NCBI RefSeq assembly: GCF_037902255.1
Contig: NZ_CP147990.1
Span: 2,040,001 to 2,072,000, forward strand
DNA: 32,000 nt
Origin: Candidatus Electrothrix sp. GW3-4
GTDB lineage: Bacteria > Desulfobacterota > Desulfobulbia > Desulfobulbales > Desulfobulbaceae
Reading direction: 5' to 3'
Positions 1 to 27,364 of the stretch are shown here, in pieces. The position numbers and the translations under genes are program-made. Position 1 is the first letter of the stretch; every line of letters begins with the position of its first letter. The notes beneath the pieces were generated by a model. That model did no database searches, had not been told where the DNA came from, and saw nothing but the letters and a program-made list of their open reading frames with translations.

Positions 1-241
1 GACCATTATAGAGCAAATCCCCTTTGGCCAAACCAGGACCTATGGTGAGATTGCAACGCTGCTCGGTAATAACAATAAGGCCAGGGCCGTGGGTGGGGCA
101 GCCAATAAAAATCCCCTGCCCATTGTCATTCCCTGCCATCGGGTCATTGGGAGCAGCGGAAGCCTGACCGGGTTTGCCGGAGGATTGACAATAAAGCGAT
201 ATCTCCTTAACTTGGAGCAGCGGGTTGCAGGGCAACAGTAA
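1..241 (+). CDS. ogt: Methylated-DNA--protein-cysteine methyltransferase (MGMT/Ogt family), C-terminal part; 5' end lies outside the window
   Basis: The frame beginning at nt 2 reads ...[67 protein letters not shown]. It contains the PCHRV active-site motif. Stop TAA is at 239-241. It is absent from the ORF track because there is no start codon in the window. Confidence 0.9.
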
Positions 242-381
242 TTCAAGATCTCCTTTTTCTTTGCTGAATCCCGCTTCCTGTCTTTTTTTTGAGCTGCTCA
301 TTATAGCAGAGTTATATGCAGATTCTAATAATTTACCGGAAATAATAATCTTTTTCATCGCCAAAATACGCATCCTTCCTA

Positions 382-410
382 TTGACTTTACGTTATTTTC
401 CTTATATCAT
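382..410 (+). promoter_or_regulatory. Candidate sigma70-type promoter upstream of the PPC-domain gene
   Basis: TTGACT (382-387), a 17-nt spacer, then TATCAT (405-410), in an AT-rich intergenic region about 190 nt upstream of the ATG at 599. Sequence match only. Confidence 0.3.
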
Positions 411-598
411 CAACTCAAAACAGATCGTAATTTTCTTACTCCGGGTAACCGGACAACTATTACCTACATCTAAATAATAGAATAAAATTACCTTACCAAA
501 GACTATCCATCCAAACACCGTATTATATTTAAGCAAAAACAAATATTTTCTTATGCGGTTTCCTACCAAGAATAATACATAGAAAGGAGAGAAAGGAT

Positions 599-1624
599 AT
601 GAAGATAACTCAGATCAGAACAGGACTCTTGATAATCATAGGGGCCTTGTTTTGCACTGCGACTGCCGGAGCTGAGGTCATATCAGAAATCGAACCGAAC
701 AATGACTTTGCGAATGCTCAGCATATTGATGTTTCCTCGTTTACTGTCGGCTTGGATTCTGATATCACCAACTCAGACATCTGGCCTTGGGTCTCCATTA
801 TAGGTACAGGTGATGGCACCTTTGATTATTATTCCTTTGAGGTCTCGCTGGCGGGAACGACTGCCAGCATTGATATCGACTACAATACCTTCGATACCGT
901 CGTATTGCTCTATGATGCTGACGGCAACCTACTTGCCGAAAATGATGATAACTGGTCTGACCCTGGCTCAAATTCCTGGGCTTCACTTATTGAATATACC
1001 TCTTTACCACCGGGAACCTATATTGTTGCTGTCGCTAAAATTTCCCCCTTCGGCGAGCCAGTTGGCGTATCTGGTGGTTATGGGGTACACATTTCACTCT
1101 CCCAAGTTGGAGTTTCTCTTCCGCCAGACACACCTGGTCAGGACACTCCAGCGATAGACATAACCGATCAGATCATTATGCCGATGGAAGCAACCGGTCA
1201 GATCATTATTAAACCCTTTAAATACGATCGTGACAGGGCGAGCTTCCATCTCCGAGATATGGAGGGCATCGATATTGCGCTACTGGATGCCATGGCCAAT
1301 GGCACGGGTTTGTCATTCAGTAGCGCAACGATCGCTGATTCTCCCATATACAGCTTTTCAGCTGACAGCAACGAGCTTGATGCGGATGCTCAATCCCTTG
1401 TCTATAATGACGGCGTCAATTCACTGCATTGTAGGTTCAACGAACAAGGTTGCGTTGTCCAAATTAGCCGTGCCAATCTTAGCGCAGAGGCAGTTGAGGA
1501 ACTTTTTACTGAAGAAATGACGGTACGTCTTGCTCTCGGGGAAAATCTCTATCTCAATACCTCAATGTGGGAAAAAGTAGAGAGTAAGGGGACCCCCGTG
1601 CTCAAGTACCAAAAAAAGAATTGA
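599..1624 (+). CDS. Exported protein with an N-terminal PPC (pre-peptidase C-terminal)-like domain; function unknown
   Basis: RBS GAAAGGAGAGAAAGG lies directly upstream of the ATG. The N-terminal signal peptide is MKITQIRTGLLIIIGALFCTATAGA. EIEPNNDFANAQ...GDGTFDYYSFEV...AENDDN...PPGTYIVAV resembles the PPC-domain pattern. A terminator follows. Confidence 0.7.
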   Translation: MKITQIRTGLLIIIGALFCTATAGAEVISEIEPNNDFANAQHIDVSSFTVGLDSDITNSDIWPWVSIIGTGDGTFDYYSFEVSLAGTTASIDIDYNTFDTVVLLYDADGNLLAENDDNWSDPGSNSWASLIEYTSLPPGTYIVAVAKISPFGEPVGVSGGYGVHISLSQVGVSLPPDTPGQDTPAIDITDQIIMPMEATGQIIIKPFKYDRDRASFHLRDMEGIDIALLDAMANGTGLSFSSATIADSPIYSFSADSNELDADAQSLVYNDGVNSLHCRFNEQGCVVQISRANLSAEAVEELFTEEMTVRLALGENLYLNTSMWEKVESKGTPVLKYQKKN

Positions 1625-1654
1625 TCAACCGCCTCATTTGATCATCAGCAGCAA

Positions 1655-1685
1655 GCCCCTTTCCTTGGTTGAGAGGGGCTTTTTC
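1655..1685 (+). terminator. Rho-independent terminator of the PPC-domain gene
   Basis: GCCCCT (1655-1660), a 13-nt loop, AGGGGC (1674-1679), then TTTTT. Confidence 0.6.
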
Positions 1686-1753
1686 CGTATACACACCTTT
1701 ATCATTTTCCCCGAACCTCAACATATCGCCAAGCATCAGCCGCATGCCGTAGT

Positions 1754-1797
1754 GGCGTTTCTTTTGTGCTAGGCTCTTTTAGCACAAGAGAAACGCC
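1754..1797. repeat. 17-bp inverted repeat (long hairpin) of unknown function
   Basis: GGCGTTTCTTTTGTGCT (1754-1770) pairs with AGCACAAGAGAAACGCC (1781-1797) at 16/17 positions, with a 10-nt loop. There is no flanking T-tract on either strand. It sits at the boundary of the AT-rich HEPN locus. Confidence 0.6.
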
Positions 1798-1834
1798 GCG
1801 GAGGTATGTCGGCTGGATGCAATTGTTAGATTTT

Positions 1835-2542
1835 TTATCCCACAATGCTAGATGACTCAATTATTATTTGCTCCGCAATAAATCGTAAAAGAGGGATTTC
1901 CTTTACGAGCATTTTGTCATCTTTAAAAGGCGTGTATTTACTTTTCTCAGACTCTTTGCTATGCACTATGGAATTTCTTGTTTTATATATCCTTCCAGCG
2001 AGATTCTTGAATATGAGCTCTTCATCAGAAGACACTAAGTCAACAGTATTTCCATCGGAAAAGGAAACTTTCGTATTCTTATAGTAGTCGAGAAGCGTTT
2101 CATCATACTCGTCCAATTTATTTTTAAGATCTGTAATATCTACATATCCGCTAATCGTTAACCTAAGTGCTTCAAGCTCACTAAAAGTTATGGTTTCATT
2201 CCTTATCTGTAACGACTTACTAATATCCTTTATTAGCTTACCGATATCTTTCTTTCGCTTATAAGAGAAATCAGGTTGGGTGATTTTATCTTTAATTCTA
2301 AGTACCAAATCTTCGTTAAAAACCATTTCAAAGAAGTGTTCTGCTACATGGTAGTAGGATATAAACTCTAAAAATGGGTTGTCAGCACCTACAGCTAGCT
2401 GATAATGATAGATAAGGTCAGGAACATAATGTCTTCTAGGTGGATCTAAATCCTCCATTGAGACGCGCCTAACTCTATTAATTCTTCCCGTTCTTATTAC
2501 TTCCTCTAGTGCTAAGTCATGACTAAATTTTAGGGTTACCAT
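1835..2542 (-). CDS. HEPN-like (Rx4H) protein, putative RNase or abortive-infection effector
   Basis: 235-aa ORF in a markedly AT-rich segment. The C-terminal part contains GRIYKTRNSIVHSKE, which is the R-N-x-x-x-H HEPN catalytic signature. The family was not identified beyond this motif. Confidence 0.6.
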   Translation of the reverse strand: MVTLKFSHDLALEEVIRTGRINRVRRVSMEDLDPPRRHYVPDLIYHYQLAVGADNPFLEFISYYHVAEHFFEMVFNEDLVLRIKDKITQPDFSYKRKKDIGKLIKDISKSLQIRNETITFSELEALRLTISGYVDITDLKNKLDEYDETLLDYYKNTKVSFSDGNTVDLVSSDEELIFKNLAGRIYKTRNSIVHSKESEKSKYTPFKDDKMLVKEIPLLRFIAEQIIIESSSIVG

Positions 2543-2595
2543 TTCCGGACCAAATCGAAAGATGGAACAATTACGGAAACGACCAATCCTAAATT

Positions 2596-3228
2596 TTAGC
2601 TTTTACAGAGCACTAGGTGCCTCTGAGGGACTAACGCTGCATCCATGTTGTAACTAAGTTGAAAAAGAAAAGCGCTACTGTACTTTTCAAACTCAGAAAC
2701 CGTTCTATTCTTAGTAGAATCCAGCCTCAACGTTAGAAACCGGCCAATTATTCGTCTCAACACATCAAAGATGTTTGTTATTTCTTCTTCCCGAGGCCGT
2801 TCAAACACACGCCTTAGCGGCATAGGCATAACCAGCGACCGTGTCGATGCTACCTCCGATACCTTAATCAATAAGAAGACCAAATATTCGTTAGATGGGC
2901 TTGATAAACAGTACTCGATATTGTTATCAGAGTCTGTAACTCTTAACGCATCATCCCGCACCCTGGGACGCATTCTAGGAAATGAAGATTCTTCCCTAAC
3001 TAGAGTTTCATAAACTTTGTTGGTGGATATAATGGTTTCATCTTGGCTTTCAAAAAGGCTTAAGCTATCAATAATTTGCTGAAGTTCATCTTTTGGCAAA
3101 TGAATTATTTTATCTACATTGACTTCATTCAGGTTAAACACATACGCACCTTCGTGCTCACTAACGTGTATACGAAGAGCCTCAGCTATTAAGTCAGCGA
3201 TCTCGTCAATTGTTTTTTCGATAACCAT
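2596..3228 (-). CDS. Hypothetical protein, upstream partner (or N-terminal half) of the HEPN-like protein
   Basis: 210-aa ORF with the same strand and AT-rich composition as 1835-2542. I recognise no motif. Its stop lies 53 nt before the next ATG, and the downstream reading frame opens exactly where this frame closes. Confidence 0.55.
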   Translation of the reverse strand: MVIEKTIDEIADLIAEALRIHVSEHEGAYVFNLNEVNVDKIIHLPKDELQQIIDSLSLFESQDETIISTNKVYETLVREESSFPRMRPRVRDDALRVTDSDNNIEYCLSSPSNEYLVFLLIKVSEVASTRSLVMPMPLRRVFERPREEEITNIFDVLRRIIGRFLTLRLDSTKNRTVSEFEKYSSAFLFQLSYNMDAALVPQRHLVLCKS

Positions 3229-3371
3229 AGGGATTACTCTTCACTCTCCAAAAAATCTAACAGCGCTAATAGGGATGCCAGGCCCACATTGAACGAGTCC
3301 ACTATAGCCTGACAACAGAAAATTTGGGTAAAATTCCAAAGCGTTCGAGATGGAAAGGGGTGAGGCAGCAT

Positions 3372-3416
3372 AAAAAAAGGGCTCGACATCTGCCAGTGCA
3401 GACATCCGAGCCCTTT
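3372..3416 (-). terminator. Rho-independent terminator of the glutamate synthase operon
   Basis: On the minus strand: AAAGGGCTCG, a 21-nt loop, CGAGCCCTTT, then TTTTTTT. It begins 27 nt after the stop of 3443-5800. Confidence 0.75.
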
Positions 3417-3442
3417 CACTCTTCGAACCGTAAGTATACTCT

Positions 3443-5800
3443 TTAATAAGGTCGCATGGTCCAGATACCGCAGGGACAGGTATCAGCGCAGAACCCACAG
3501 GCAATGCATTTATTACCATCAGACACATACTCAAAGCTCACACCGCCCGCATCCACAGGTTCCACTTCCCGCCGGGAGATGGCATGGGTCGGACAGATGG
3601 TCTCACAGAGATGGCAGTCACGACAGGAGCCGCAACTCAGGCAGCGGGCTGCCTGCTGGCTTTCCGTATCGCCTTTTTCCTCTGCCGGATCATAATGGGC
3701 TATGGTCAGGGCCTCGTACTGGATCAGTTTTTGGGCAAAGGGCTTCCACTCTTTGTCTGCTAATACAGAGGCGAGGTACTCAGCTGTCCGTTTGGCCGCT
3801 CCCAGGGCATTGGTGGCCAGACCAGGCCGCTCCACATCACCCACTGCCAGGATTTTTTCGTCAGTGGTCCGACCGGCATCATCGGTCTTGATCCAGGAGC
3901 CACCAGCAATCTCAACGCTCTCAACGCTCTCCGGCAGGAAGGGCAGGCTAGGGACATCACCGATGGAAATAATCACGGTCTGGGCCGGAATCAGCTCATC
4001 CTTATCCGTGACCAGCCCTTCTTCCGTGACCTCCTTAGTCATGACCGGCCATTTGAAGGTGGCCCCTAAGGCCTCAGCTGCATCCCGCTCCTTGCCAAAG
4101 GCCAAGGGCTTCTGGATATCCACCAAGGTCACTTCCTCAGCACCAAGCCGGTAGCATTCCGCAGCCACGTCACAGCCCACATTGCCTGCGCCGATAACCA
4201 CCACCTGCTTACCGGTCGCCATGGGCGCGTCACTCTTGGCCGCCTTTAGGTAATCCAGGGCCGGGATAACCCGTTCATGACCCTGAAAGGGGATGATCTT
4301 GGGCTGATGGGTCCCCACGGCAATAATAACATAATCATATGCTGCCTTGAGTTCTTCCATCTTTTCCCTGGTCATTTCCACGCCAAGGTGAGCCGTGATC
4401 AGCTCGGTCTTGAGAAAGCGCTCGACCTCCATCTGCCAGACCGCCTTGGTCAGGCGTTCCCAGGGGATAGTCTGGGCCAGCTTTCCGCCCAGTTCCTCAC
4501 TCCGCTCAAAGATATGGGCCTCAATGCCTGCCAGGGCCAGATGCCAGGCCGCTCCCATACCCGCCGGACCACCGCCGATAATAGCGACCTTATGCCCGGT
4601 CGCAGGCTTGCATTTGGGAGGGTCAACATTATGCACGGCCTGTCCCAGCACAGCAACATCAATGGAATAATCCACCTTCTTGCGGGAACAGTTCTGGATA
4701 CAGAGGTTGGGGCAGATGGTACCGCAGACCGAAGCCGGAAAGGGGGTATAGCGGAGCAACATCTCATAGGCTTCCTCATTTTTGCCCTCACGGATCATCC
4801 GCAATCGATCAATGGTGGGGATGTGCATGGGACAGTAATAGGTGCAGGGCGCTGCTGAATCACGATTCACCCAATAGGGGCTGCGGCGACGCATCTCACC
4901 GGTTTCCACCACCCCGATCAGGGAACGGTCCAGGCCCGGAGCCAGGTCACGCAGGGGGTCACCACCGCCAAAACCATTATTCCAGATACGGGCCGCAAAC
5001 TCGGACATGGACATGGGACCAGAGAACATCAGGGCCCGCTCCTGGGCTGTGACGGCACTGAGCAGATTCCACTCCTCGCGCTGACTCAAGCTCTCCAGCA
5101 GCTCCGGGCGACCAATGGCCTCCAGATAGGCGGGTAAACGATCGATGAGCCATTGCCATTCCTCGTCAGTGGGTTTGCTCAGTTTTGCATTATTGCGGGA
5201 GTAGCTGTCATCGGTCGTGCCGCGAAAATAGACCTGACCACCAACCATACCGACACAGGGCCGGTAGCCCAGGACGTTATTCGGGTTTTTGGCCTCATGA
5301 CCACAGATAACCGCAATACCGCCGCAGTTAAACTCGGCAAAGGTATCCCCCACAGAGCCCAAGACCCACATCTCTGGTTTTTCATACTCTGGATTCCACT
5401 TCGTCATGGTCAGACCGCGCGCACCGATGGAACCACCGATCATCACCCGGCCACCAGCCATGGCGTTACAGACACCGTTGGTGGCATCGCCTTTGACAAT
5501 AACGTCTGCCCCGATGTTGAGGTAGCCCACATCGTCTGAGGCTGAGCCTTCGCAGATGATGGTGGAACCGGGCATGCCCATACAGCCCACCCGCTGTCCT
5601 GCTGGGCCGGTGATACGGATGGTCAGGGGACGCTCTACCTTACCGAGTCGCAGACCGATATTATGCTGACCAAAGGACTCCAGAACCAGTTCGTCGGCAT
5701 CAGCAGCTGCACCGCGCACCTCTTCTTCAAAAATCTTGGATGTCAGGCGCAGGCCCTTTGCATCTTTGCCGCTTACAGTTATTATTTTTCGCTCACTCAT
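3443..5800 (-). CDS. Glutamate synthase subunit: GXGXG (GltB C-terminal) domain fused to a GltD-like NAD(P)H/FAD oxidoreductase and a C-terminal 2x[4Fe-4S] ferredoxin
   Basis: The N-terminus has the glycine-rich repeats GQHNIGLRLG...GPAGQRVGCMGMPGSTIICEGSASDDVGYLNIGADVIVKGDATNG. Dinucleotide-binding motifs are VAIIGGGPAGMGAAW and VVVIGAGNVGCDVA. The C-terminus has CLSCGSCRDCHLCETICP and CIACGFCADTCP. Confidence 0.9.
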   Translation of the reverse strand: MSERKIITVSGKDAKGLRLTSKIFEEEVRGAAADADELVLESFGQHNIGLRLGKVERPLTIRITGPAGQRVGCMGMPGSTIICEGSASDDVGYLNIGADVIVKGDATNGVCNAMAGGRVMIGGSIGARGLTMTKWNPEYEKPEMWVLGSVGDTFAEFNCGGIAVICGHEAKNPNNVLGYRPCVGMVGGQVYFRGTTDDSYSRNNAKLSKPTDEEWQWLIDRLPAYLEAIGRPELLESLSQREEWNLLSAVTAQERALMFSGPMSMSEFAARIWNNGFGGGDPLRDLAPGLDRSLIGVVETGEMRRRSPYWVNRDSAAPCTYYCPMHIPTIDRLRMIREGKNEEAYEMLLRYTPFPASVCGTICPNLCIQNCSRKKVDYSIDVAVLGQAVHNVDPPKCKPATGHKVAIIGGGPAGMGAAWHLALAGIEAHIFERSEELGGKLAQTIPWERLTKAVWQMEVERFLKTELITAHLGVEMTREKMEELKAAYDYVIIAVGTHQPKIIPFQGHERVIPALDYLKAAKSDAPMATGKQVVVIGAGNVGCDVAAECYRLGAEEVTLVDIQKPLAFGKERDAAEALGATFKWPVMTKEVTEEGLVTDKDELIPAQTVIISIGDVPSLPFLPESVESVEIAGGSWIKTDDAGRTTDEKILAVGDVERPGLATNALGAAKRTAEYLASVLADKEWKPFAQKLIQYEALTIAHYDPAEEKGDTESQQAARCLSCGSCRDCHLCETICPTHAISRREVEPVDAGGVSFEYVSDGNKCIACGFCADTCPCGIWTMRPY

Positions 5801-5810
5801 AGGTATAAAA

Positions 5811-6548
5811 TCAGTGATTATGGGCAGCCTGCCCGTGTATCTGGTTTTCTTTCATTATATTGATAATTTTTTCATCCAGGCAGGAACGAAGAAAGCTGTT
5901 CATCGCCTCCTGCTCCCCGGTTGTGTACAAATCAAGCATCAGCCGGTTGAATTCCAATTGTCGCTTTGCCGAAAGATTGATCGCCGGAAAGCCGTTTTGC
6001 AGCAGAAAACCGTTCATCATAAAACGGCCTATCCATTTGCAATTCAAACGCTTGTTGACGTCATAAAAAAACTGACACCGAGCCATCATCAGAAAATAGA
6101 AAATAGCCCGGTCATATACATCTGAAATCTATTCCGCCTCTTTGATCATCCTTGAAAACAACTCGGGTAGCTGGTCTGCCGATGGCGGCATATATTCTGT
6201 TCCGGCTATCATCACTCCGCTGGAACGAAATCGGCCTCACTCCAAGGCATCTTCTTTGGCCGCGATCCCGTGCAGCTTGCAGGCAATCTCAGCAGTAACG
6301 ACAAACTGATCGCTTTTCACCAGGGCAAAGACTTCCTGCCAGGCATTGGACTGGTTTAGGACAATCTGCTGATCACTCAACTTATGACCGCCAACGGTTA
6401 TGCCGTCCAGCAGGGTCTGGACTTCGGGCAGGGTATAGTTGATTCCCTCAAGATTTATCGCATCGCAGACCAACTCGGATAATTGCCGTTTGGCCAGCAT
6501 CAGGGCTTTGGCCTTGCTGGGCGGCATGTGCCAGTGGGAGTCGTTCAC
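5811..6548 (-). pseudogene. Fic/Doc-family pseudogene (two in-frame stops, degenerate active-site motif)
   Basis: ORFs 6237-6548 and 5811-6089 are in the same frame (459 nt apart). The gap also translates in that frame as ...DALE*GRFRSSGVMIAGTEYMPPSADQLPELFSRMIKEAE*ISDVYDRAIFYFLMMARCQFFYDVNKRL.... The stops are TGA at 6237-6239 and TAG at 6129-6131. QFFYDVNKR occupies the position of the Fic/Doc HxFx(D/N)GNKR motif, with the H and G residues replaced. Confidence 0.6.
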
Positions 6549-6568: not shown

Positions 6569-6958
6569 TTACGATAAATATGTCCTGATATTATCGTAAA
6601 CTTCGGTCGCTATGCTAAAAAATTCTTCGGCAATTTCTTTCGATGGCTTACCATCCGGGAGAAATCCCATATCCATCGGGTAGCGGGAATCAATGTACAA
6701 TTCGTTAATTTGACCAAACAGCTCTCGGTCAACAGAGAGTTCAATGTAATTTTCTATTTTGCCTTGAAGATTTATGATGTTATGAATTCTTGGTACAGTC
6801 CCTTCTTTTTCTTCCAGTACAGCCTTGATGCTTTTTTCTATTGCCTGTTGGGAATGAAAGGCTACCATGTTGGTCAGATGCTCATTACCTATAATTTCTT
6901 GTATGAGCATCAGATCGTCTCCGGCAGAGTTCAACCAATATTCAGTCTGTTTTTTCAT
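6569..6958 (-). CDS. HEPN domain protein (toxin-like partner of the MNT nucleotidyltransferase)
   Basis: FHSQQAIEKSIKAVLEEKEGTVPRIHNIINL and LYIDSRYP fit the small HEPN family that pairs with minimal nucleotidyltransferases. It overlaps the upstream MNT gene by 17 nt. Confidence 0.85.
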   Translation of the reverse strand: MKKQTEYWLNSAGDDLMLIQEIIGNEHLTNMVAFHSQQAIEKSIKAVLEEKEGTVPRIHNIINLQGKIENYIELSVDRELFGQINELYIDSRYPMDMGFLPDGKPSKEIAEEFFSIATEVYDNIRTYLS

Positions 6959-7286
6959 ACAGTAATTTTCCCGTCTTCTTTATCTCATTACAAAAAGAAT
7001 TTTCACTCTTCAGGACAATATCGTACTCACCTCTTGTATAGACCAATAAATCAATAGGTATTCTTTTGCTCAAATTGTAAATTTTTCTGCGAACCAGCAT
7101 CTTGTTTCGCATTTTCTCATCATAATTTTTTGCTATACCCAAGGAGTCCAGCACGACGAGTAAATCAAGATCGCTGTCCTCTGTAAAGGAATCGCCAGCA
7201 TATGAGCCGAACAAAATTATTTTATAGGGATCAGTCTTCCTTATACTTCTTACTATTTCAGGAAGATATTTCCTTTTGTCTTCCAT
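6942..7286 (-). CDS. Minimal nucleotidyltransferase (MNT-type antitoxin)
   Basis: ILFGSYAGDSFTEDSDLDLLVV matches the G-S...D-x-D nucleotidyltransferase motif. The protein is 114 aa, and the gene lies upstream of and overlaps the HEPN gene. Confidence 0.85.
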   Translation of the reverse strand: MEDKRKYLPEIVRSIRKTDPYKIILFGSYAGDSFTEDSDLDLLVVLDSLGIAKNYDEKMRNKMLVRRKIYNLSKRIPIDLLVYTRGEYDIVLKSENSFCNEIKKTGKLLYEKTD

Positions 7287-13468: not shown

Positions 13469-14722
13469 ATGTCTAAACCCAAAAAAACTACCCTTTTGCC
13501 TGTTCAACAAGATATCTTCACAAAGCAGACCATTAATCAGGATGGCCCAGGGAGTCTTTTACAAGACTTTAAAACAATACTTAATCTTCTCGGAGAAAAA
13601 GGAATTCCTGTCTCTGGGGTAAAAAAGCATTTTCCCATGGCCCAGCTTGCGGAAATCAACAACCAACTTTCTCATCCTGTCACCCTGAAACTGAAACGTC
13701 CTGTCCAAAAGTCTTATCCGCACATTAATGCCCTGTATTTGCTTGTTCGAGCTTCAGGAATAGGAAGGATTGCTGGCACAGGGAAAAAACACCGTTTGGT
13801 GCTTGAGCCAACCTTGATTCAGCTTTGGCAAAAACTCACTCCAGCAGAACAGTACTTTTCTTTATTTGAAGCATGGTGGTGCAGGGGAAGTGATGAAATC
13901 CTCGGGGAGCGGGAGGGCGGTGGGATGTTAGATTATTTGATTCGAAGCTTGAATTATTTTATCAAACTGCCGGAGAAGGGTGTCAACATGGCAGGAAAAA
14001 AACAAGAGGAAGAAGGTCTGCGATATTATCCAGGTCATCATTCGTTGGCTTTATTAGAATTATTTGGTTTTATCACCATACAGGATGGTGAACCGGAGCA
14101 AGGGAAAGGGTGGCGCGTTGAAAGCATTACGCCGACAGAGTGGGGGAAGGCTGTCCTGAACAGTATCTATAAGGGAAATCAACAGACAATGGATACATTT
14201 TGGGGTGCATCTGTTGAGGAAATGAAGGCGGCTGCTTTTGCACAATGGAGGACAGCGGTTCAGCCGTATTTTCCTGATTGGAATAACATATTGACGCCAC
14301 CTGAAGCCCCATTTCAGCAAGGTGTTCATGTTGTTAAAATATCAATGGACAGGGCATGGAGAAGGATAGCCATCTCAGGAGAGGCCACCTTTGACGCACT
14401 TGCAGAGGCAATTTTAAGGGCCTTTAATTTTGGTAATGATCACCTGTATCAGTTTATTTATAGCGACTCGTACGGGTTGAAAAAATACATAAATCACCCT
14501 GCACTGGAAGAAGAGCCCTACACAGACGACACTCGTCTTGGCAAAATTTCATGCTATGCTGGCATGGAAATGGTTTTCTTTTTTGATTTTGGGGACTCAT
14601 GGGAATTTCAGGTGATGGTGGAAGAAACCGATGCGGATACCCCTGTTGGATCGGAGCCTGTGCTCCTTAAAAGTCACGGCAAGGCACCTGAGCAGTACCC
14701 GGAATATGATGACGAGTGGTGA
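13469..14722 (+). CDS. Plasmid pRiA4b ORF-3-like family protein
   Basis: The C-terminal region reads FDALAEAILRAFNFGNDHLYQFIY...MVFFFDFGDSWEFQVMVEE. This matches the HLxxF and (Y/F)DFGDxWxh signature of the pRiA4b ORF-3-like domain, which is often linked to mobile DNA. Confidence 0.75.
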   Translation: MSKPKKTTLLPVQQDIFTKQTINQDGPGSLLQDFKTILNLLGEKGIPVSGVKKHFPMAQLAEINNQLSHPVTLKLKRPVQKSYPHINALYLLVRASGIGRIAGTGKKHRLVLEPTLIQLWQKLTPAEQYFSLFEAWWCRGSDEILGEREGGGMLDYLIRSLNYFIKLPEKGVNMAGKKQEEEGLRYYPGHHSLALLELFGFITIQDGEPEQGKGWRVESITPTEWGKAVLNSIYKGNQQTMDTFWGASVEEMKAAAFAQWRTAVQPYFPDWNNILTPPEAPFQQGVHVVKISMDRAWRRIAISGEATFDALAEAILRAFNFGNDHLYQFIYSDSYGLKKYINHPALEEEPYTDDTRLGKISCYAGMEMVFFFDFGDSWEFQVMVEETDADTPVGSEPVLLKSHGKAPEQYPEYDDEW

Positions 14723-16306
14723 AACGAGCAAAGAAGCAAATAACAAACAAATCTTTCCTGCAACCACCCTGAAGGAGGCTGTGTTCTGCAGTACGAGGGA
14801 GCACCCAACAGGTCAATCAAGCCTCCGAAGGAGGGTGATGAAGGGCTTTTCCCCTTGTTTCGCCGTTTTTTGTACGCAGCTGCCCGTATGATATTGAGTG
14901 CTGTTGCCTTCATGCTCGCTGCGAAACGAACCGCTTTCATACCTCGAACCCGGAGGTGCTTGATTCCCGTGCGTCGATCAAGTTGCGACATGGTCGCCTC
15001 GACTCCGGCCCGGAACCGATACTTGTCTTTGAATTCATCGGTTCGCTCGTTGGCTCTTCTTCGGGTGAGGCGGACGACCTTCTCGTTATAGCGGAGATAA
15101 ACGAGGTCTTTTTTGCCGGGTTTAACAGGGCAATGGTTGACTCTCGGGCAGGCATTACATTTTTCTGACGAAAAGGCTATGGTGAACCTGTCTTTTTTCT
15201 TGGATTTTTTGACCGGCTGGCATTTTTCAGGGCACGAGATGACAAAACCGTTTTCAGAAAACTCAAAATCGGTCAGAGTGCAGAAGAGATCTTTTTGTCG
15301 ATCCAGAGTGGGGGCGATCAGATCAACGCCTTTTTGTTTTGCCGCCTCGTGATTGTCATCGCTCCCGTAGAGCGTATCGGCTGCTATTTCTTCCGGTTTT
15401 ACACCACGTTGTTCTGCGGCCTCAAGATACGGCATCACTTTCATGGGCAGCCTGCACATCAACATAGGTGATCAGGGAAAGAGTTCCAGCATCTTTCTCA
15501 TTGCTATATGTTTCAGCGACCTGAGCCTGGTATCCTTTGCCTTTATGACCGCTGTATCCGGCATCGGGATCAGAGGGATTCTGAAGAGAGTCGGAGGGGA
15601 TATCCTTATTCGCCTTCAGGATGACACGCGGTTCATCAGTATTTTCTCCCTGCTCTGTGATGCATTGTTCTTTCAGAACGCGCGTCATGAGCTGATATGT
15701 TTTCATGGACGCGATGTCAGGACGCGAGCAGAACCTGTTGATAAGAAAAAAAAGGTCTTCAGCAACCATTTGCAGGGTTTTGGTCGATTCGGACGGTTTA
15801 ACCATAGAAAAGGCACTTTCCTCTTCTTTTTTCAGGTAGCGATCCCGCAAAGTTAGATCAAGTTCATTGAAATCGTTTTTGTGCTGCCGCTTGAGGTTGA
15901 CCAGGAATCTCTTGATAGCTTCTGTAAAGATACAGATTCTACCTGAGTTGTTTGTGATATCAAGAGCATAATGCCATTGTATATTAAAGACAAACTGCTC
16001 GGCTGTTTCTTGGTCTGTCAGATTATGCATCTGCTGCAACAACATCGCTCCCATCATGGCAACGAGCTCATTGGTTGGACGTCCCATCTTCGCACTGAAA
16101 TACCGGGCAAGGAGGTCAACAGGAAGCACGTGGCGGACATGATCCCGAAAAATCCCCGCCCATGACTCGCCCAGCATTTTTCGACGTTTCGGCCCGAGAA
16201 AATCAAAAGGGTCGAACATGTTAATGGTTTTGTGATCTTTGATGTTTAACATGGCTACATTGCTTATCTGTTTATAATATTGATCTATTAGTACCAAGAC
16301 AAACAA
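14674..16306 (-). mobile_element. IS1182-family insertion sequence remnant; transposase split by a frameshift; element ends not determined
   Basis: The N-terminal ORF (likely start ATG 16250-16252, MLNIKDHKTINMFDPFDFLGPKRRKM...GRPTNELVAMMGAMLLQQMHNLTDQE) resembles the DUF772-type N-terminus. The C-terminal ORF (ADTLYGSDDNHEAAKQKGVDLIAP...CNACPRVNHCP...YRFRAGVEATMSQLDRRTGIKHLRVRG) resembles the DDE part. The two frames overlap at 15422-15465. The C-terminal frame runs on past any plausible IS end into the 3' end of 13469-14722. I could not find terminal inverted repeats by eye. Confidence 0.7.
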
Positions 16307-16922: not shown

Positions 16923-17003
16923 GTATAGCTCGGCAGCATGCAATTAGCAAATGAATAATCGTGACGGTGGACAGAGGGATCAGTTAAATGCGGATTTTTG
17001 TCG

Positions 17004-17206
17004 GGCCGGGTTGAATCGAGAGAGCCTGTTCAAGGCTCTTGCCGGAGAGGGTAATCCGAGATTTTCCACAGTCAGCGGGGACATCAAGACATTTTTTTTT
17101 GGGGGGGGACGACTGGCTGTTGCGTGAAGACGGGAAACAAAGGAGCCGGATGCTGTTTTTGCAACAATTCCAATTCTGGGATCAATCGAGTCCGACCCCA
17201 TTGACC
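17004..17206 (+). repeat. TA-island repeat, copy A (antitoxin 3' remnant plus conserved tail)
   Basis: It starts at GGCCGGG and encodes AGLNRESLFKALAGEGNPRFSTVSG...RLAVA* (stop 17125-17127). The remnant is disrupted by a T9G8 tract (17092-17108). The tail is GGGAAACAAAGGAGCCGGATGCTGTTTTTGCAACAATTCCAATTCTGG, followed by the hairpin GATCAAT-N13-ATTGACC (17180-17206). Confidence 0.9.
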
Positions 17207-17228
17207 TTCAGGAAGGAAGGAGAGTGCG

Positions 17229-17558
17229 CTACGTCGGTGCCGGAGTGCGAAATCCAGAACCTGCCATAGGTCGAATTTCCCGTTTTATCCTTTCTTCCGA
17301 AGCATCTTCGGCCATATCCAGCTCAAAGTCCATCTGGAGACCAAGCCAGAACTGGGGAGACATATCAAAGTATCTGGCCAGCCGCAGGGCCGTATCAGCA
17401 CTGACCCCTCTTCTGCCCAAAACAATTTCATTAATTCTTCTGGCCGGGACATGAAGTGCCAAGGCCAATTTATTCTGGCTCAGGCCCAGCGGTTTCAAGA
17501 ATTCCTCCTGGAGCACCTCACCCGGATGCAGGGGTGCTATTTTCTTTGTTCCCATCAT
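17229..17558 (-). CDS. higA: HigA-type antitoxin (XRE-family HTH)
   Basis: PLHPGEVLQEEFLKPLGLSQNKLALALHVPARRINEIVLGRRGVSADTALRLARYFDMSPQFWLGLQMDFEL is the canonical HigA/VapI HTH. Its start overlaps the higB stop (TAATG). Confidence 0.9.
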   Translation of the reverse strand: MMGTKKIAPLHPGEVLQEEFLKPLGLSQNKLALALHVPARRINEIVLGRRGVSADTALRLARYFDMSPQFWLGLQMDFELDMAEDASEERIKREIRPMAGSGFRTPAPT

Positions 17559-17845
17559 TACCCCCTGTGATAATCTACAATTTCCACATCAAACGCATCT
17601 TCGTTTTTCCATGTGAAGCAGATTCTCCACTGATCATTGATGCGAATTGAGTATTGACCTGCCCGTTCCCCTTTCAGTTTTTCGAGATGATTTGCAGGCG
17701 GAATGCGCAGGTCATTAATATGTTGCGACCTGTTTATCATGCGCAGTTTTCTGAAGGCGGATCTTTGGATATCATTCGGTATCTTTTTAGAATGCGACCG
17801 CTTGAAGATCTTTTCCGTTGCGCTGTTTTTGAATGATCGAATCAT
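17558..17845 (-). CDS. higB: HigB-type toxin (RelE/ParE superfamily killer protein)
   Basis: I placed the start at ATG 17843-17845 (MIRSFKNSATEKIF...). LEKLKGERAGQYSIRINDQWRICFTWKNEDAFDVEIVDYH is the HigB signature. Confidence 0.9.
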   Translation of the reverse strand: MIRSFKNSATEKIFKRSHSKKIPNDIQRSAFRKLRMINRSQHINDLRIPPANHLEKLKGERAGQYSIRINDQWRICFTWKNEDAFDVEIVDYHRG

Positions 17846-17918
17846 ACACTGTATGTTACAACGGGTAACGTTTAACGTCAATGGTTAAAGGGTTGGTGCG
17901 AATTTAACAGCGGTGGGT

Positions 17919-18047
17919 GGCCGGGCTAAACCGTGGGAGCTTGTACAAGGCTTTTGCCGGAGATGGTAATCCGAGATTTTCCACGGTCAGCAGGGGCAGC
18001 GTGAAAACGGGAAACAAAGGAGTTGGCCGCTATTTTTGCTACAATTC
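17919..18047 (+). repeat. TA-island repeat, copy B (internally deleted and 3'-truncated)
   Basis: It starts at GGCCGGG and encodes AGLNRGSLYKAFAGDGNPRFSTVSRG. About 30 bp are missing relative to copies C and D. Homology ends at ...TTTTTGCTACAATTC, where the vapC gene (18039-18443, minus strand) begins its 3' end. Confidence 0.85.
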
Positions 18048-18443
18048 AGCTACCTCAATGGTGCATTCCTTGGCAGTCCTGATCAATTTTTTATCCAAGG
18101 TCAAAAGAACAGCATTATTTCTTCGAGCTGCGATTAAGTACATAATGTCATACACACTGTGACCCACCAAGGTACATGACAGCTTGAAAGCCTCTCGAAA
18201 AAAGTCATGTTCATCAATAAAATCATCAGGAAGAGCAATAGCTTGTTCAAGGCCTCGCTCACAGTCCTGCAAAGAAAGGTCTGTCAACCGCTGATATTTC
18301 CAAAAAACATTCGTGACTTCCGAAACAAACAGAGTCGGCGCGACCACCCAGTCCGCCTCACTCAGATACCTACTCAACTGCCCTGCCATAGGGCGTTGCA
18401 GAACAACTTCCACTGCCGCACTTGCATCAAGGACAGCGATCAT
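18039..18443 (-). CDS. vapC: PIN-domain toxin (VapC family)
   Basis: MIAVLDASAAVEVVL... has the N-terminal acidic PIN signature. The protein is 134 aa. It has a 4-nt ATGA overlap with the upstream antitoxin gene. Confidence 0.85.
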   Translation of the reverse strand: MIAVLDASAAVEVVLQRPMAGQLSRYLSEADWVVAPTLFVSEVTNVFWKYQRLTDLSLQDCERGLEQAIALPDDFIDEHDFFREAFKLSCTLVGHSVYDIMYLIAARRNNAVLLTLDKKLIRTAKECTIEVAEL

Positions 18444-18691
18444 CGCTCACGATCCTCCCTGACAAGTTGAACAGGATCCACAGATGCCATTTTTTTGCCT
18501 ACAAAGCATGTTTGCTCAGCAATTGTCTGAAGCAATTTTCTCCTGCGATCTTTATGGGAAACAGCGGTCTCCATACCTCTTGCCAAGGTAACGACAGCCT
18601 CCTGGGCAAGACTGCGATGTTCCGCTTTCGCCCTTTTTTGCAAACGATGATAAATATTAACCGGCAACTCTCTCACTTGTAAAGATGGCAT
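18440..18691 (-). CDS. vapB: RHH/Arc-type antitoxin (VapB/FitA-like)
   Basis: MPSLQVRELPVNIYHRLQKRAKAEHRSLAQEAVVTL is a ribbon-helix-helix N-terminus typical of PIN-partner antitoxins. The gene is translationally coupled to the PIN gene. Confidence 0.75.
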   Translation of the reverse strand: MPSLQVRELPVNIYHRLQKRAKAEHRSLAQEAVVTLARGMETAVSHKDRRRKLLQTIAEQTCFVGKKMASVDPVQLVREDRER

Positions 18692-18846
18692 GGCACTTCT
18701 CCCTAAAGATGTATTTTCAACCTGTTATTTAAACCTCTTTTGAGAATAATGCATTTTTCATCATTACGCAAGCAGCTGTGCCTTTTATTCTAATGGAGTC
18801 TGGGTCTGTGCGAACTTTCGGGGGATGCACAATTGGATCTGTTTAA

Positions 18847-19020
18847 AGACCGGCGGGTTTTGATCCGAACTCGGTGCTGAAAAAAAGCACTAAGGTGGCG
18901 AGAAAGGCCGGGTTGAATCGTGAGAGCCTGTACAAGGCTCTTGCCGGAGAGGGTAATCCGAGATTTTCCACGGTCAGCAGGGGTATCAAGGGCTTGGGGT
19001 GCCGACTGGCTGTGGTGTGA
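18847..19020 (+). pseudogene. 5'-truncated remnant of a HigA-family (addiction module antidote, HTH) antitoxin gene; longest surviving copy
   Basis: The in-frame translation is RPAGFDPNSVLKKSTKVARKAGLNRESLYKALAGEGNPRFSTVSRGIKGLGCRLAVV*. This matches the C-terminal GLxRESLYKALSxxGNPxxxTxxxVxxALGxRLxV pattern of that antitoxin family. No start codon or N-terminal half is present, and a TAA sits immediately upstream. Confidence 0.7.
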
Positions 19021-20966: not shown

Positions 20967-21045
20967 AGCTGCTTGGAAGCTCTGTTGATGGCTGTTCTCA
21001 CTCTGGATAAACATTTTCGGCATCTTCCGGTTGGATGCGTGAAGT

Positions 21046-23245: not shown

Positions 23246-26200
23246 TCACCCCAAAACCTCAACCCGAATAGCACAAAGCTTATACTCCGGCGTACGAGAA
23301 AGCCGATCCAGCGCATCCAAGGTCAGGAAGTTAACCGGGGTCTCCTCATAATTATAGGTGGTGAAAATGGTGCCGGGCTGGCTCCGCTCGGTGATTTTCG
23401 CCTTAATATCCACCGTTCCCCGGCGGGAGGTGAGTTTCAGCATATCGCCCGACTTGATCCCCATCCGCTCGGCATCAACAGGATTAACTTCGGCCAGAGC
23501 CTCGGGTGCGATATCATCAATCTCCTCGGTTTTGCCGGTCATATTGCTGAAATTATAGCGGGCATAATGGCGGCCCGTGGTGAAGAGCATAGGGTACTCA
23601 TCATCCACTGGCTCCTTGGGTGCCATGTAGACTTCCGGTACAAACAGCCCCTTACCGCGCGTAAAGGACTCGGTATGGAGAACCGGGGTGCCCGGATGCT
23701 CAGTATCAGGCACCGGCCATTGCAGACCGACATCCTCAATGCGGGCGTAGGAAAGACCCTTGTACTGCGGTAAAAGTTCGCAGACTTCATTAAAGACATC
23801 TTCCGGACCTGCTATACCCATGGAGTAACCCATCCGCTCAGACAGCTCGCTGATGATCTGCCAATCCGGCTTAGCAATTCCCGGAGGTTCAACCGCCTTA
23901 CGTACTCGCTGTACCCGCCGTTCCGTGGAGGTGAAGGTGCCGTCTTTCTCGGCAAAACAGGCTGCTGGGAGAACCACGTCCGCTGCCTTGGCCGTGTCAT
24001 TGAGAAAGAGATCCTGGACAACAAGGAACTCCAGATGATCAAGGGCCTTGTGGACATGCCCGATATTAGCATCAGCAATGGCCGGATCTTCACCAAACAC
24101 GTAGAGGGCTCGGATTTCATCCTGGAGGATATTATCCCAGATCTCCGTGGCCGGCTTGCCGGGCTGCCGGGGTAATTTGACCTGCCAGCGTTCTTCGTAG
24201 CGGTCAAACAGCTGATCATTATCCAGCTTACCGTAACCGGGCATGGTGTTGAATAGAGCGCCCATGTCGCAGGCTCCCTGGACATTATTCTGTCCACGCA
24301 ACGGATTGCACCCGCCGCCTTCAACCCCGACCTTGCCGCAAAGCATGGCCATATTGGCGATGGATTTGACTCGGTCCGTACCGGTGTGATAATGGGTGAT
24401 GCCCATGCCGTGATAAATCGCATTGCGACCGGGAGCCGCATACATACGGGCGGCCTGCTCCAGTTGACTGATCGGGAGACCGGTGATTTCGGAAACCAGC
24501 TCCGGCGGATAGCCCTCCGCCATCTCTTGCATCTCCTCAAAATCTTCGGTGCGCTGGGCAACAAAATCCTTATCCCAGAGGTCTTCCTTCAGGATAATAT
24601 GCATCAAGCCGTTGAGCAGAGCCACGTCCGTGCCCGGTTGAATCCGCAACCAGAGATCAGCCCGTTCTGCCAGCTTGGTCCTGCGCGGATCAACCACCAC
24701 CAGTTTTGCATCCCCTTTATCCAAGGCCTGATGAATACGCAAGCCGATGGTGGGATGACTGGTGTCTGGATTGGACCCGATCATGAAAAAGAGATCTGTT
24801 TTGTTATTAACAACATCGGCGATTGAGTTGGTCATTGCGCCGGAACCGAATGTGATGGCCAGACTGGCCACCGTGGGAGCGTGTCAGAGCCGGGCACAGT
24901 GATCGATATTATTCGTCCCGATCACCGTGCGCATGAACTTCTGCATGAGGAAGTTTTCCTCGTTGGTTGCTCTGGCACAGGAAAATCCGGCAATGGAATC
25001 CGACCCGTGCTCCTTTTTGACCTTGGTCAGCCGCTCCGCAATAACATTATAGGCCTCGTCCCAGGAGGCTTCCACCAGCTTGCCGTCACGGCGAACCAGC
25101 GGAGTGGTCAGGCGTTTTTTATCCTGAGCAAAGTTAAAGGCAAAGCGACCCTTGACGCAGAGGGCTCCGTAGTTGGGAGCCAAATGCGACTCTGAGGTGG
25201 CCTCCATGATGGTGTCGCCCTTGACCTTGAGCTGCATCTGGCAGCCAGCCCCGCAGTAAGGACAGGTAGTGCGTACCTTACGAGTTTCCTCATAGAGGAT
25301 GGGAGAGAGCACATCCTTTTTGCAGATAGTGCCGGTAGAGCAGTTATCTGCGCATTGCCCGCAGTTCACACAGTTCTCATTAAAACGCAACGAGATGCCG
25401 GTGGCCCTGCCCTGCTCATCTACTGAAGCCTTCAGCTCCAGGGCATCATATGCACAGGCATTGACGCAGCGGCGACAGTACACGCATTTGTTCAGATCCA
25501 CATTGAGCATGGGATGCGAGCTGTCCAGGCTGTACACAGGCTCGGTGGCCATGCCGGTCTTGTTCAAATTGATATTATTATCAATACAGAGCTGCTTAAA
25601 ATCGCAGTCATCATAGGCCATGCAGCCGCATTCCAGACAACGATCCGCCTCCTGTCGGGCAGCCGCCTCATCAAAGCCCAGCCTGACTTCCTTGTTGTCC
25701 AGGACCGCGACCTCCGGGTGCCGGTCCGGCATAGGGGTCCGATCCCGCCTATCAAACCGCTCCAATACCCTGGTATCCACAGCATCAAAGGACTTACCGC
25801 GGCTGAAGTTAAAACGACTTTCCGCCGAAGGGGCAGCGATCCCCATCAGATCGGTGTGAATGTTCTCTGCCGCCTTGCGCCCGGAGCTCACCACCTGAAT
25901 CAGGGCACGGCTACCGCTGGCTGCCTCACCTGCCGCATAGACCCGATCCATACTGGTCATTGAGGTCTTGATATTGGCCTTGATCAGATTCTTCGGGGTG
26001 AAGTCCACCGGAACCGGGGGCTCGCCCTGTTCCTCTGTATAGGCCATCTGTCCCTGAGCATGAATGATTGTGTCCACCAGCAGGACCTCAAAGACATCCG
26101 GGACCGGCTGCAGCTGCCGTTTTCCTTTATCATTCGGTTCCCCCAACTCCATCTGGTTCAGAACCAGCTCCAATCCAGAGCCCAGCTGTCTGATTTCACA

Positions 26201-27364
26201 GGGGTCAACCATAAACAGGAAATGCACGTTTTCCTTGACAGCTTCGCTGACCGCCTTGGGGCTGGCAGGTAACTCGGTTTCGTCAGCGCGCAGGCTGACC
26301 ACCGTGACCTCCTCATACCCCAGCCGGATCAGACTGCGGGCGTTTTCCAGGGCAATATTATTGCCGCCGATCACTGCTGCTGTTTTCCCCTTGCGCAGTT
26401 GGCTGGTGTCACCAACATTGTACTGTCGAAGGGACTGCAGCCCCGGCAACACCCCAGGCAGGTCGACGCCTGGAATCTCCAGGGGCTGATCAATCCCGGC
26501 CCCGATGGTCAACAGGACGGCATCAAACTGATTCTTCAACTCGTCCAGGGTGACATCCTGGCCCAGACGATGATTGCATCGGACCGCAATGCCAAGTTTG
26601 AGAATGGTCGCGATCTCGTAGTCCAACACCTTTTTCGGTAGTTTAAACTCCGGAATGCTGTAGCGGAGCAGACCGCCCAGCTCCTCCTCTGCCTCAAAAA
26701 TGGTGACCGCATGCCCGTTTTTGGCCAGATAATAGGCTGCTGATAAGCCTCCGGGCCCACCACCGATCACGGCAATCTTTTTGCCGGTGGCAGGTTGGGA
26801 TTGAATACCAAGATCAATCGTATTGCTCATGCACCAATCAGCAGCAAAACGCTTCAGATGGTTGATGGCAATGGGCGCATCCAGCAGGACCCGACGACAA
26901 CGGCTCTCACAAAAACGGCGGCAGAGCCGCCCCACGGAAAACGGCAGCGGGTTCTTCTCCATAACCAGTCGGACGGCCTCTGCGTACTGCCCTTTGGCGA
27001 TATGGGCGATATAGCCCTGGACATTGATCTGGCCTGGGCAGGTCAGGCTGCATGGAGCTTTGCAGTCGCCAAAATGGATGGATGCCAGCGCAGCAACCCG
27101 TTCTTGACGATGCGCTTTGAGCTCATCATTATCCGTGATAATGACCATCCCCTCCTCGACCAGGGTTGAGCAGGATTTGATAAAGCCCTCCCGTCCCTCG
27201 CAGGCAACAACACAGACCTCGCAATGGGACTCCTGAGATTTTTTTTCCGGGAGGTGGCAAAGAGTCGGAATAGTGATTCCGGCTTGGCGGGCAGCTTCCA
27301 GTATGGTTGCGCCCTGTTCGACCGAAACCTGAACGGCATCAACGGACAGGCTGATTTTTTTCAT
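23246..27364 (-). CDS. fdhA: Selenocysteine-containing formate dehydrogenase fusion protein: 2Fe-2S ferredoxin, GltD-like NAD(P)H/FAD oxidoreductase, 4Fe-4S clusters and the molybdopterin FdhA catalytic domain (1372 aa, Sec at residue 827)
   Basis: Track ORFs 24884-27364 and 23246-24871 are in one frame, joined by TGA (24884-24886) in the context [29 protein letters not shown]. This is the conserved Sec/Cys position of FdhA/FdhF enzymes. Domain evidence is as follows. The N-terminus has ITIPTLCH...CEVCVV. The GltD-like part has KIAVIGGGPGGLSAAYYLAKNGH. The ferredoxin motifs are CVYCRRCVNAC and CVNCGQCADNC. The Mo-enzyme 4Fe-4S motif is TTCPYCGAGCQM. The C-terminal part ends ...TIFTTYNY.... 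Confidence 0.9.
24850..24886 (-). promoter_or_regulatory. Candidate bacterial SECIS element downstream of the UGA codon
   Basis: The mRNA reads UGA CAC GCU CCC ACG GUG GCC AGU CUG GCC AUC ACA. GGUGGCC and GGCCAUC form a 7-bp stem (24854-24872) with loop AGUCU, starting 12 nt after the UGA. The geometry and loop resemble the E. coli fdhF SECIS (GCAGGUCUGCAC). Confidence 0.6.

Follow-up and report, generated by a model that had tools for sequence, protein, structure and literature searches.

Do two adjacent open reading frames (ORFs) in a cable bacterium encode the two components of a defence system, or are they the remains of one gene? The question arises at positions 1835-3228, on the minus strand, of a 32,000-nt stretch of the genome of Candidatus Electrothrix sp. 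GW3-4 (hereafter the window), where the ORF list contains 3228..2596 (210 aa) and 2542..1835 (235 aa). Both ORFs had been noted correctly in a first-pass annotation, which read them as a two-protein locus. Our analysis indicates that 1835-3228 is almost certainly one gene for a two-domain protein of 428 aa, split by a 107-bp miniature inverted-repeat transposable element (MITE). The whole of the best explanation, to which we assign a probability of about 0.8, is that an acquired 428-codon gene related to that of DzbB, a protein of the Dazbog abortive-infection system, was split by the MITE and probably inactivated.

The reading frame and its insert

Excision of 107 nt, comprising the element and one copy of CTAG, gives an uninterrupted 428-aa ORF that contains no other lesion and is collinear, without gaps, with intact homologues. 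Searching for homologues of the 235-aa ORF yielded 96 proteins, of which many are 370-408 aa long and continue unbroken across the split point (proteins are cited below by P numbers and genomic loci by L numbers). Intact homologues span the break as ...ALVPQRH(L/I)EE(L/V)(V/I)R(T/S)GRI..., with P0004 and P0024 reading ...VPQRH(L/V)EELVR(S/T)GRI.... At the same place, the window reads ...ALVPQRHL-VLCKS (a hyphen marks the junction here and below) followed by a stop, and then, 53 nt on and in another frame, MVTLKFSHDLAL-EEVIRTGRI.... What had been described as a separate proximal protein devoid of recognisable motifs is the N-terminal domain of the same protein: the 210-aa ORF is homologous to the N-terminal parts of the long homologues, and the 5' part of the gene is collinear with the N-termini of P0024, P0042, P0098, P0099, and P0010. 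Three genomic loci of relatives carry uninterrupted ORFs of 425 aa (L001), 434 aa (L003), and 423 aa (L004).

An exhaustive profile search of 1.84 billion representatives placed 1,930 in the family, 523 of them at E<=1e-30; these ~1,900 family representatives are clusters at 50% identity. Of the top 150, more than 140 consist of one chain of 410-455 aa, and the matches run in a single stretch. A contiguous protein is the norm in the family, and the split an exception. Gene callers report two ORFs because the insert brings a stop after five codons as well as an accidental in-frame ATG, upstream of which no Shine-Dalgarno sequence is evident (...GGTCCGGAAATG). With intact homologues continuous across the gap, the two proposed proteins reduce to one gene with a MITE insertion, and the proposed architecture of sensor partner plus HEPN effector is an artefact of that insertion.

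An AlphaFold2 model of the restored protein, built on a 50-sequence alignment, has a predicted local distance difference test score (pLDDT) of 87.1 and a predicted template modelling score (pTM) of 0.67. It comprises an alpha/beta N-terminal domain (residues ~1-205), a linker (211-216), and an all-helical C-terminal domain (228-428). Residues 211-216 form the only segment with pLDDT <50, and the MITE site at 205/206 lies beside it, at the domain boundary.

The gene is a horizontally acquired, low-GC accessory insert, flanked by a glutamate-synthase-like gene and a PPC-domain gene. Several observations of the first-pass annotation stand in this respect. The G+C content of 1835-3228 is 37%, compared with 48% for the whole window and 55-60% for the neighbouring glutamate-synthase gene, and a terminator lies on either side (Table 1). 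An inverted repeat was likewise found at the edge, in the form of a hairpin at 1743-1808 with arms of 29 nt and a CTAG at the edge of its loop (1769). This hairpin is possibly a 3' end structure or the edge of an island; an Rfam scan of positions 1-6000 gave chance-level matches to miRNA models only for it. It could otherwise be a 3' structure of Rho-independent-like type, a palindrome that binds a protein, or what is left of another small repeat.

Table 1. Features of the disrupted gene, its insert, and its edges (window coordinates)
Feature	Position	Strand	Details
5' part of disrupted gene	2613..3228	-	codons 1-205; N-terminal alpha/beta domain; ends ...ALVPQRHL, then insert
3' part of disrupted gene	1835..2505	-	codons 206-428 and stop; linker and all-helical DzbB/MauJ-like C-terminal domain
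Element-encoded tail V-L-C-K-S and TAA stop	2596..2612	-	truncates the N-terminal fragment
Element-encoded ATG and 12 residues (MVTLKFSHDLAL)	2507..2542	-	false start of the 235-aa ORF
R-N-S-I-V-H motif	1961..1978	-	restored residues 382-387; candidate catalytic Rx4H
MITE	2506..2616	.	111 nt including CTAG at each end; net insertion 107 nt
Terminal inverted-repeat arm	2506..2537	.	CTAGTGCTAAGTCATGACTAAATTTTAGGGTT
Terminal inverted-repeat arm	2585..2616	.	AATCCTAAATTTTAGCTTTTACAGAGCACTAG; Logan contigs stop at its 30 outermost bases
Terminator of convergent PPC-domain gene	1653..1681	+	hairpin and T-run; downstream edge of low-GC insert
Terminator of upstream glutamate-synthase-like gene	3376..3416	-	hairpin, then minus-strand T-run; upstream edge of low-GC insert
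Strong hairpin	1743..1808	.	~30 nt past gene stop; no T-run; -33.8 kcal/mol, z = -6.8

The element, its copies, and its targets

By its sequence features, the insert at 2506-2616 is a CTAG-targeting MITE. It is small (111 nt) and non-coding, has 32-nt terminal inverted-repeat arms that are 75% complementary and bear CTAG on both sides, and folds into a long hairpin (-34.7 kcal/mol, z = -5.2). The target is duplicated, and a 107-nt deletion leaves a clean empty site that restores register with the homologues. The duplicated sequence is either CTAG, as with IS5-like elements, or the central TA, as with IS630/Tc1-like elements. Copies at several unrelated sites are attested by metagenomic loci, by contig breaks, and by the N-terminus of a paralogue.

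In metagenomes, no match was found to an exact 26-mer taken from one arm, while a degenerate consensus of both arms retrieved 17 loci. Seven of these are two-armed, with arms 108-122 nt apart; their termini are conserved over ~33 nt, their cores are variable, and their flanks are unrelated. The two-armed copies are bounded by CTAG, one of them having a degraded end, and one copy is 88% identical to the window element over its full length. An asymmetry between the arms, GTCATG versus GTAAAA, is kept across copies and is therefore a trait of the family rather than decay. The metagenomic copies show no association with the DzbB-like gene family, and the 32-kb window holds one copy. Two copies from the same metagenome, RCNA01 (L026, 2532-2642; L016, 69-177), have near-identical flanks, opposite orientations, and different cores; they could be allelic forms of a single site in related strains, or else the site itself could belong to a larger repeat.

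This element resembles the CTAG-targeting MITEs of bacteria, whether of the IS5 type (4-bp CTAG duplication) or the IS630/Tc1-mariner type (TA duplication), in being ~110 nt long, non-coding, hairpin-forming, CTAG-bounded, multicopy, and precisely excisable in silico. It differs from them in its conserved arm asymmetry and in that no parent transposase with the same ends was found. The only insertion sequence (IS) in the window, at 14674-16306, was considered as a parent and rejected, since its ends are unrelated; no autonomous IS with MITE-like ends was found in the window. That IS, on the minus strand, carries an IS5/IS1182-type transposase in two overlapping ORFs, DUF772 (294 aa) and DDE_Tnp_1/DDE_Tnp_1_6 (263 aa), the split reflecting either a frameshift or a pseudogene, and it adjoins a gene for a PRiA4_ORF3-domain protein (13469-14722). 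In the literature searched, we found no description of MITEs in cable bacteria; the element is of an ordinary kind, and its family is apparently undescribed.

Could the interruption be an artefact of assembly or sequencing, or belong to a minority allele of a gene that is really intact? Repeats can be misplaced in assemblies, and the window comes from a single genome record. The Logan assemblies of the read sets SRR28154588/89/90, identical to the window, speak to this point, as all of them end at 2587, 30 nt (k-1) into the element from the CTAG. A de Bruijn graph that enters a repeat breaks off in just this way, so the shared end point marks the element as a repeat; because the contigs cross the junction between gene and element, that junction is present in the reads. 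Three short-read assemblies thus repeat it base for base, whereas a coexisting intact allele would have branched the contigs at CTAG and not 30 nt beyond. Given also the full MITE anatomy of the insert and its relatives elsewhere, an artefact seems extremely improbable.

The same genome appears to hold a second case. The protein P0009 (WP_339138289.1, Candidatus Electrothrix sp. GW3-4) is a paralogue, 63% identical, that opens with precisely the 12 residues encoded by the element, MVTLKFSHDLAL. Its family sequence begins at ...AYL-VW..., ~85 residues upstream of the window junction, where the codon context is once more CTA-G. This junction, known from the protein only, points to the element having inserted a second time and independently.

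The distribution of CTAG offers a possible explanation for this double hit. The 32-kb window contains 16 CTAG sites, whereas base composition predicts ~124 and a Markov estimate ~27.5. The 1.4-kb gene alone accounts for seven of the 16, a density of 5.0 per kb against 0.29 per kb elsewhere (~17-fold). We infer that the scarcity of CTAG in the host genome and its density in the foreign gene led to both paralogues being hit, as a CTAG-specific element finds few other targets. Selection against a costly or toxic gene may have added to this effect. The window has a second low-GC islet at 21791-23053 on the minus strand (~30% GC over 22001-23000), encoding a 420-aa protein that gave no match in Pfam or PADLOC; it holds three of the 16 CTAG sites and is, like the gene studied here, foreign-looking and CTAG-rich.

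A relative in another organism has been interrupted too. The gene of P0099 (239 aa; L033-L035, ~6640-6812) is truncated at GAG-CTA-G by an IS that starts GGGAAACTGCGATTAAG...; the IS end at this locus reads GGGAAACTGCGATTAAGTCTCC... and resembles IS5, the IS encodes MNQLSFADTEFTSKRRKTRKELF, and the contigs end inside the IS. We take MNQLSFADTEFTSKRRKTRKELF to be the N-terminus of an IS5-type transposase. Family members P0005, P0002, P0100, and P0024 diverge abruptly at one end as well, which suggests frequent disruption of the DzbB-like family.

One may also ask whether the MITE created, or lent, a functional split, turning the gene into a real two-component system whose effector takes its start codon from the element. 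The cut falls in the low-confidence interdomain linker, the element supplies an in-frame ATG, apart from the cut both halves are undamaged and retain every family-invariant residue, and the paralogue P0009 has the same element in frame with its own 3' part. The insertion in P0009, however, lies inside the N-terminal domain (SxxxxYL-V) and not at the boundary, so that an in-frame start there is no sign of a designed split. Furthermore, other copies of the MITE do not keep the outward-reading ATG; in the window, the ORFs are set apart by a stop, a change of frame, and 53 nt, and the ATG has no Shine-Dalgarno sequence; and the leading family representatives are, as described above, overwhelmingly single chains. 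We consider a working two-component system improbable. Translational bypassing across the insert was also considered, as the CTA codons at its two ends are identical, and was dismissed as unlikely: the take-off CTA is followed by GTG instead of a stop, the hop would have to span 107 nt, and the element has no such context elsewhere.

The single interrupted gene is hence the reading retained here, and the window copy is likely to be non-functional at present. Inactivation is suggested by the stop, the frame shift, and the 53 nt between the halves, and by the lack of a ribosome-binding site before the second half. The insertion is probably recent, since neither half carries any further damage.

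Domains and relatives of the restored protein

Dazbog is an experimentally validated two-gene abortive-infection system composed of DzbA (DUF262) and DzbB (Millman et al., 2022; Stokar-Avihail et al., 2022). A phage cytosine methylase sets off its toxicity, and no transformants carrying a dzbB deletion could be obtained. The C-terminal domain of the interrupted protein matches the PADLOC profile for DzbB at 1.7e-16 when the 235-aa ORF is searched and at 1.8e-14 with the restored protein. This match covers only profile positions 185-338 of 341, corresponding to restored residues 228-423. The same profile is matched by 48 of 50 family members (best 1.5e-15), always in its C-terminal half. Judged from these profile matches, the C-terminal domain and the C-terminal half of DzbB are homologues.

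The likeness to Dazbog thus consists of this domain and of an accessory gene found near other defence genes. Beyond it the two differ: the N-terminal 205 aa of the window protein are unrelated to the N-terminus of DzbB, the match does not extend over full-length DzbB, and a DUF262 (PF03235) DzbA gene is not adjacent. Indeed, no DUF262 gene stands beside the window gene or beside the intact homologues at L001, L003-L010, and L014. The locus is not a Dazbog system, and the rules of PADLOC or DefenseFinder, as we understand them, would not call it one. No fold is assigned to DzbB in the literature searched.

The best Pfam match of the protein is MauJ (PF17419), to which the 235-aa ORF scores 26.5 bits and the restored protein 23.4 bits, both below the gathering threshold of 28 bits. 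Among the 50 members, 37 match MauJ at E<=0.01 (best 4.6e-8), mainly through a conserved S-Y-Y-H-x-x-E-H block. The match usually spans profile positions 5-30 only, and the genomic context differs from methylamine utilisation. The literature searched contained no link between MauJ and HEPN. For the N-terminal domain, no match was found in Pfam, PADLOC, NCBIfam, or PHROGs, and the searches of NCBIfam and PHROGs yielded nothing of value.

The R-N-S-I-V-H motif on which the first-pass annotation had based its HEPN assignment is present and strongly conserved. Among members that cover the columns, R382 occurs in 42 of 42, N383 in 40 of 42, and H387 in 43 of 43, as in the Rx4-6H motif of HEPN proteins. 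The residues R377, Y379, R382, N383, H387, and K389 are invariant, as is a block formed by S255, Y257, H258, and E261. For the HEPN fold itself, profile and fold searches gave weak matches. Pfam HEPN_Apea scored 11.7-13.4 bits against a cut-off of 24.4 bits, with E = 0.0025 for the best member and 0.3 for the window protein, and Foldseek gave no match at E<0.01 in PDB or BFVD. Weak matches to HEPN models overlap the motif in two to four of the 50 members (PADLOC Cas13a, 3.3e-4; Cas13-ApeA, ~1e-3 to 6e-3). The profile check that had been proposed therefore returned the DzbB match and weak HEPN matches, with no HEPN model above threshold. The proposed likeness to the AbiJ and AbiD/F classes fared less well: neither these nor other named Abi classes gave a match at E<=10 in PADLOC or Pfam.

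Modelled separately, the C-terminal domain reached a pLDDT of 88.7 and a pTM of 0.81. A Foldseek search of PDB with the full-length model returned nothing usable, a two-domain query diluting the signal. HEPN-fold entries do occur among the insignificant Foldseek matches (MtlR, YggD, and HepS at E ~2; a MAE_28990-like HEPN protein in BFVD at E = 0.33). Comparison of the family profile with PDB sequences gave only chance matches to lipases and no relative of a solved structure. A HEPN-type assignment is a reasonable hypothesis resting on the motif, with the fold not demonstrated, and HEPN ribonuclease chemistry in the C-terminal domain can be proposed tentatively, at slightly less than even odds.

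Among HEPN proteins, single-gene defence factors such as ApeA (Apea-like HEPN, PF18739) offer a parallel. The window protein is likewise a stand-alone protein with a C-terminal helical domain; its invariant R-N-x3-H motif fits the Rx4-6H signature of HEPN proteins, with the usual polar residue after the Arg, and the weak matches of its family are to HEPN_Apea, Cas13-ApeA, Cas13a, and a MAE_28990-like fold. In contrast to ApeA and established HEPN proteins, the family scores below thresholds and has no significant fold match, its N-terminal domain is unrelated, and its ribonuclease activity is putative. If the motif is catalytic, the family would, by analogy, work most like single-protein HEPN factors such as ApeA.

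Genomic setting and role of the intact family

The surroundings of intact homologues vary and consist mostly of defence and mobile-element genes. A type I restriction-modification (R-M) system lies directly downstream of the intact homologue at L009, and a Type IIG R-M enzyme directly downstream of that at L001. The Streptococcus homologue has AbiEi_4 directly upstream, with AbiEi/AbiEii and SIR2-STALD nearby, and is associated with an integrative and conjugative element carrying Abi_2. Other neighbours include IS66, NB-ARC/TPR, MobA, ParB, a resolvase, a relaxase, a SUKH-LRR protein, and PIN toxins, and at L003 the gene sits in a small island beside a duplicated tRNA-synthetase fragment. The family is spread sporadically over Desulfobulbales, cyanobacteria, Vibrio, Streptococcus, Actinomycetota, and Bacteroidota. 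No conserved partner gene was found at ~10 homologous loci. A hidden small partner was sought in the flanking ORFs of 135 aa (L003) and 136 aa (L004) and rejected, as these are mutually unrelated and have no PADLOC match.

Two of these settings are worth describing in their own right. At L003 (8397-11852), the 434-aa gene and the 135-aa ORF lie between a complete gene for a class-I tRNA synthetase (tRNA-synt_1b) and its duplicated 3' fragment, a layout that is the footprint of a small integrative island targeting the 3' end of the synthetase gene. In Streptococcus (L006-L008, 7105-9227), the 408-aa member is located 300 nt downstream of a solitary AbiEi_4 gene of the antitoxin/regulator type, a complete AbiEi/AbiEii pair being present a few kb off in L006 and L007; the Streptococcus protein may fill the toxin slot of an AbiE-like pair.

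The claim that the locus is a stand-alone defence or abortive-infection system thus survives in part. The low-GC insert, the kinship with DzbB, the motif, and the homologues beside defence genes all favour it, whereas this particular copy is interrupted. For the intact family, an ancestral role in defence is suggested by sequence and context, and we regard it as a plausible proposal that falls a little short of an even chance.

A competing view holds that the family is not a defence effector at all, being instead a regulatory or housekeeping protein akin to MauJ or a DzbB-like neutraliser or antitoxin, in which case R-N-x3-H would not be a nuclease site. The best Pfam match is to MauJ, an uncharacterised protein found in methylamine-utilisation clusters; the failure to obtain a dzbB deletion suggests that DzbB restrains toxicity; no nuclease gave a significant structural match; and some neighbourhoods are mixed with housekeeping genes. 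On the other side, the sporadic distribution is typical of accessory genes, no metabolic neighbour is conserved, and R-M, Abi, toxin-antitoxin, and mobile genetic element genes recur nearby. The family moreover stands alone, so that there is no partner toxin to neutralise, and its invariant R, N, and H are typical of HEPN active sites, the weak matches being repeatedly to HEPN models only. We consider a non-effector role unlikely, although it has more in its favour than a functional split of the window gene.

Taken as a whole, the proposed scenario is as follows. An acquired gene for a 428-aa protein was hit by the 107-bp MITE at the CTAG of codons Leu205-Glu206, in the interdomain linker. The stop in the insert truncates the first half, and an accidental in-frame ATG lies 12 codons before the far end of the element. 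The intact family would be a single-gene defence or abortive-infection factor borne on mobile genetic elements, in which the N-terminal domain may sense or regulate and the C-terminal domain may act as a HEPN-type ribonuclease through R382, N383, and H387.

Several results weigh against parts of this scenario. With respect to inactivation, both halves are free of further stops and frameshifts, and the cut lies at a domain boundary. With respect to the second insertion, the predicted N-terminal fragment of P0009, ending ...LVLCKS, was not found on searching. As for the ribonuclease, no curated HEPN profile scored above threshold, hhalign gave no match between the family and the PF05168 HEPN protein of the window itself, and Foldseek with the C-terminal domain model gave no match at E<0.1 in PDB or BFVD. 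Finally, the evidence for a defence role comes from neighbourhoods at ~10 loci only, and the untransformable dzbB deletion, possibly a matter of toxicity, fits a restraining, antitoxin-like DzbB rather than an effector.

A bolder extension of the scenario, which we regard as speculative and unlikely in its entirety, is that the ~425-aa proteins constitute an undescribed single-gene abortive-infection family, in which a DzbB-type, HEPN-like effector with R-N-x3-H is fused to its own alpha/beta sensor in place of DzbA, and that in CTAG-depleted genomes, those of cable bacteria among them, CTAG-targeting MITEs and IS elements exert a selective filter and silence this CTAG-rich foreign gene, in keeping with the hits on both paralogues here and that of an IS5-like element on a relative elsewhere.

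Elsewhere in the window, the HEPN/MNT pair reported by the first-pass annotation was found as a canonical toxin-antitoxin pair at 6569-7286 on the minus strand, with an MNT protein (NTP_transf_2/Polbeta, 114 aa) and a HEPN protein (PF05168, 129 aa). It sits in a low-GC pocket amid two glutamate-synthase-related genes; no MNT gene lies beside the split gene, as had likewise been stated. Positions 17000-21800 hold four to five tandem, diverged repeat units, ~0.9-1.9 kb apart, with segments that are 60-95% identical. PIN-domain toxin ORFs occur in these repeats at 18039-18443, 19118-19534, and 20544-20966, and the whole looks like an array of duplicated VapBC-like modules. At 24884-24886 on the minus strand, between the ORFs 24884..27364 and 23246..24871, an in-frame TGA stands in the context C-A-R-L-[TGA]-H-A-P-T-V within a large molybdopterin/Fe-S/flavin oxidoreductase. 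We take it to be the classic selenocysteine site of formate-dehydrogenase-type enzymes; the two ORFs most likely form one selenocysteine protein of ~1,370 aa and not two genes.

With the two-component claim gone, the interest of the locus lies in the stand-alone DzbB-like family and in the CTAG-funnelled double insertion. For the organism, a mis-annotation is corrected, as the public record lists two hypothetical proteins here and the start codon of the paralogue is transposon-derived, and a CTAG-specific MITE family is documented in a cable bacterium. The members of the large unannotated family (~1,900 representatives) have the DzbB C-terminal domain in common but always occur as stand-alone proteins; they are amenable to study as a candidate new single-gene defence system and give access to the role of the uncharacterised DzbB domain. 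The locus also furnishes a concrete example of how depletion of a tetranucleotide in the host can funnel target-specific transposons into horizontally acquired genes.

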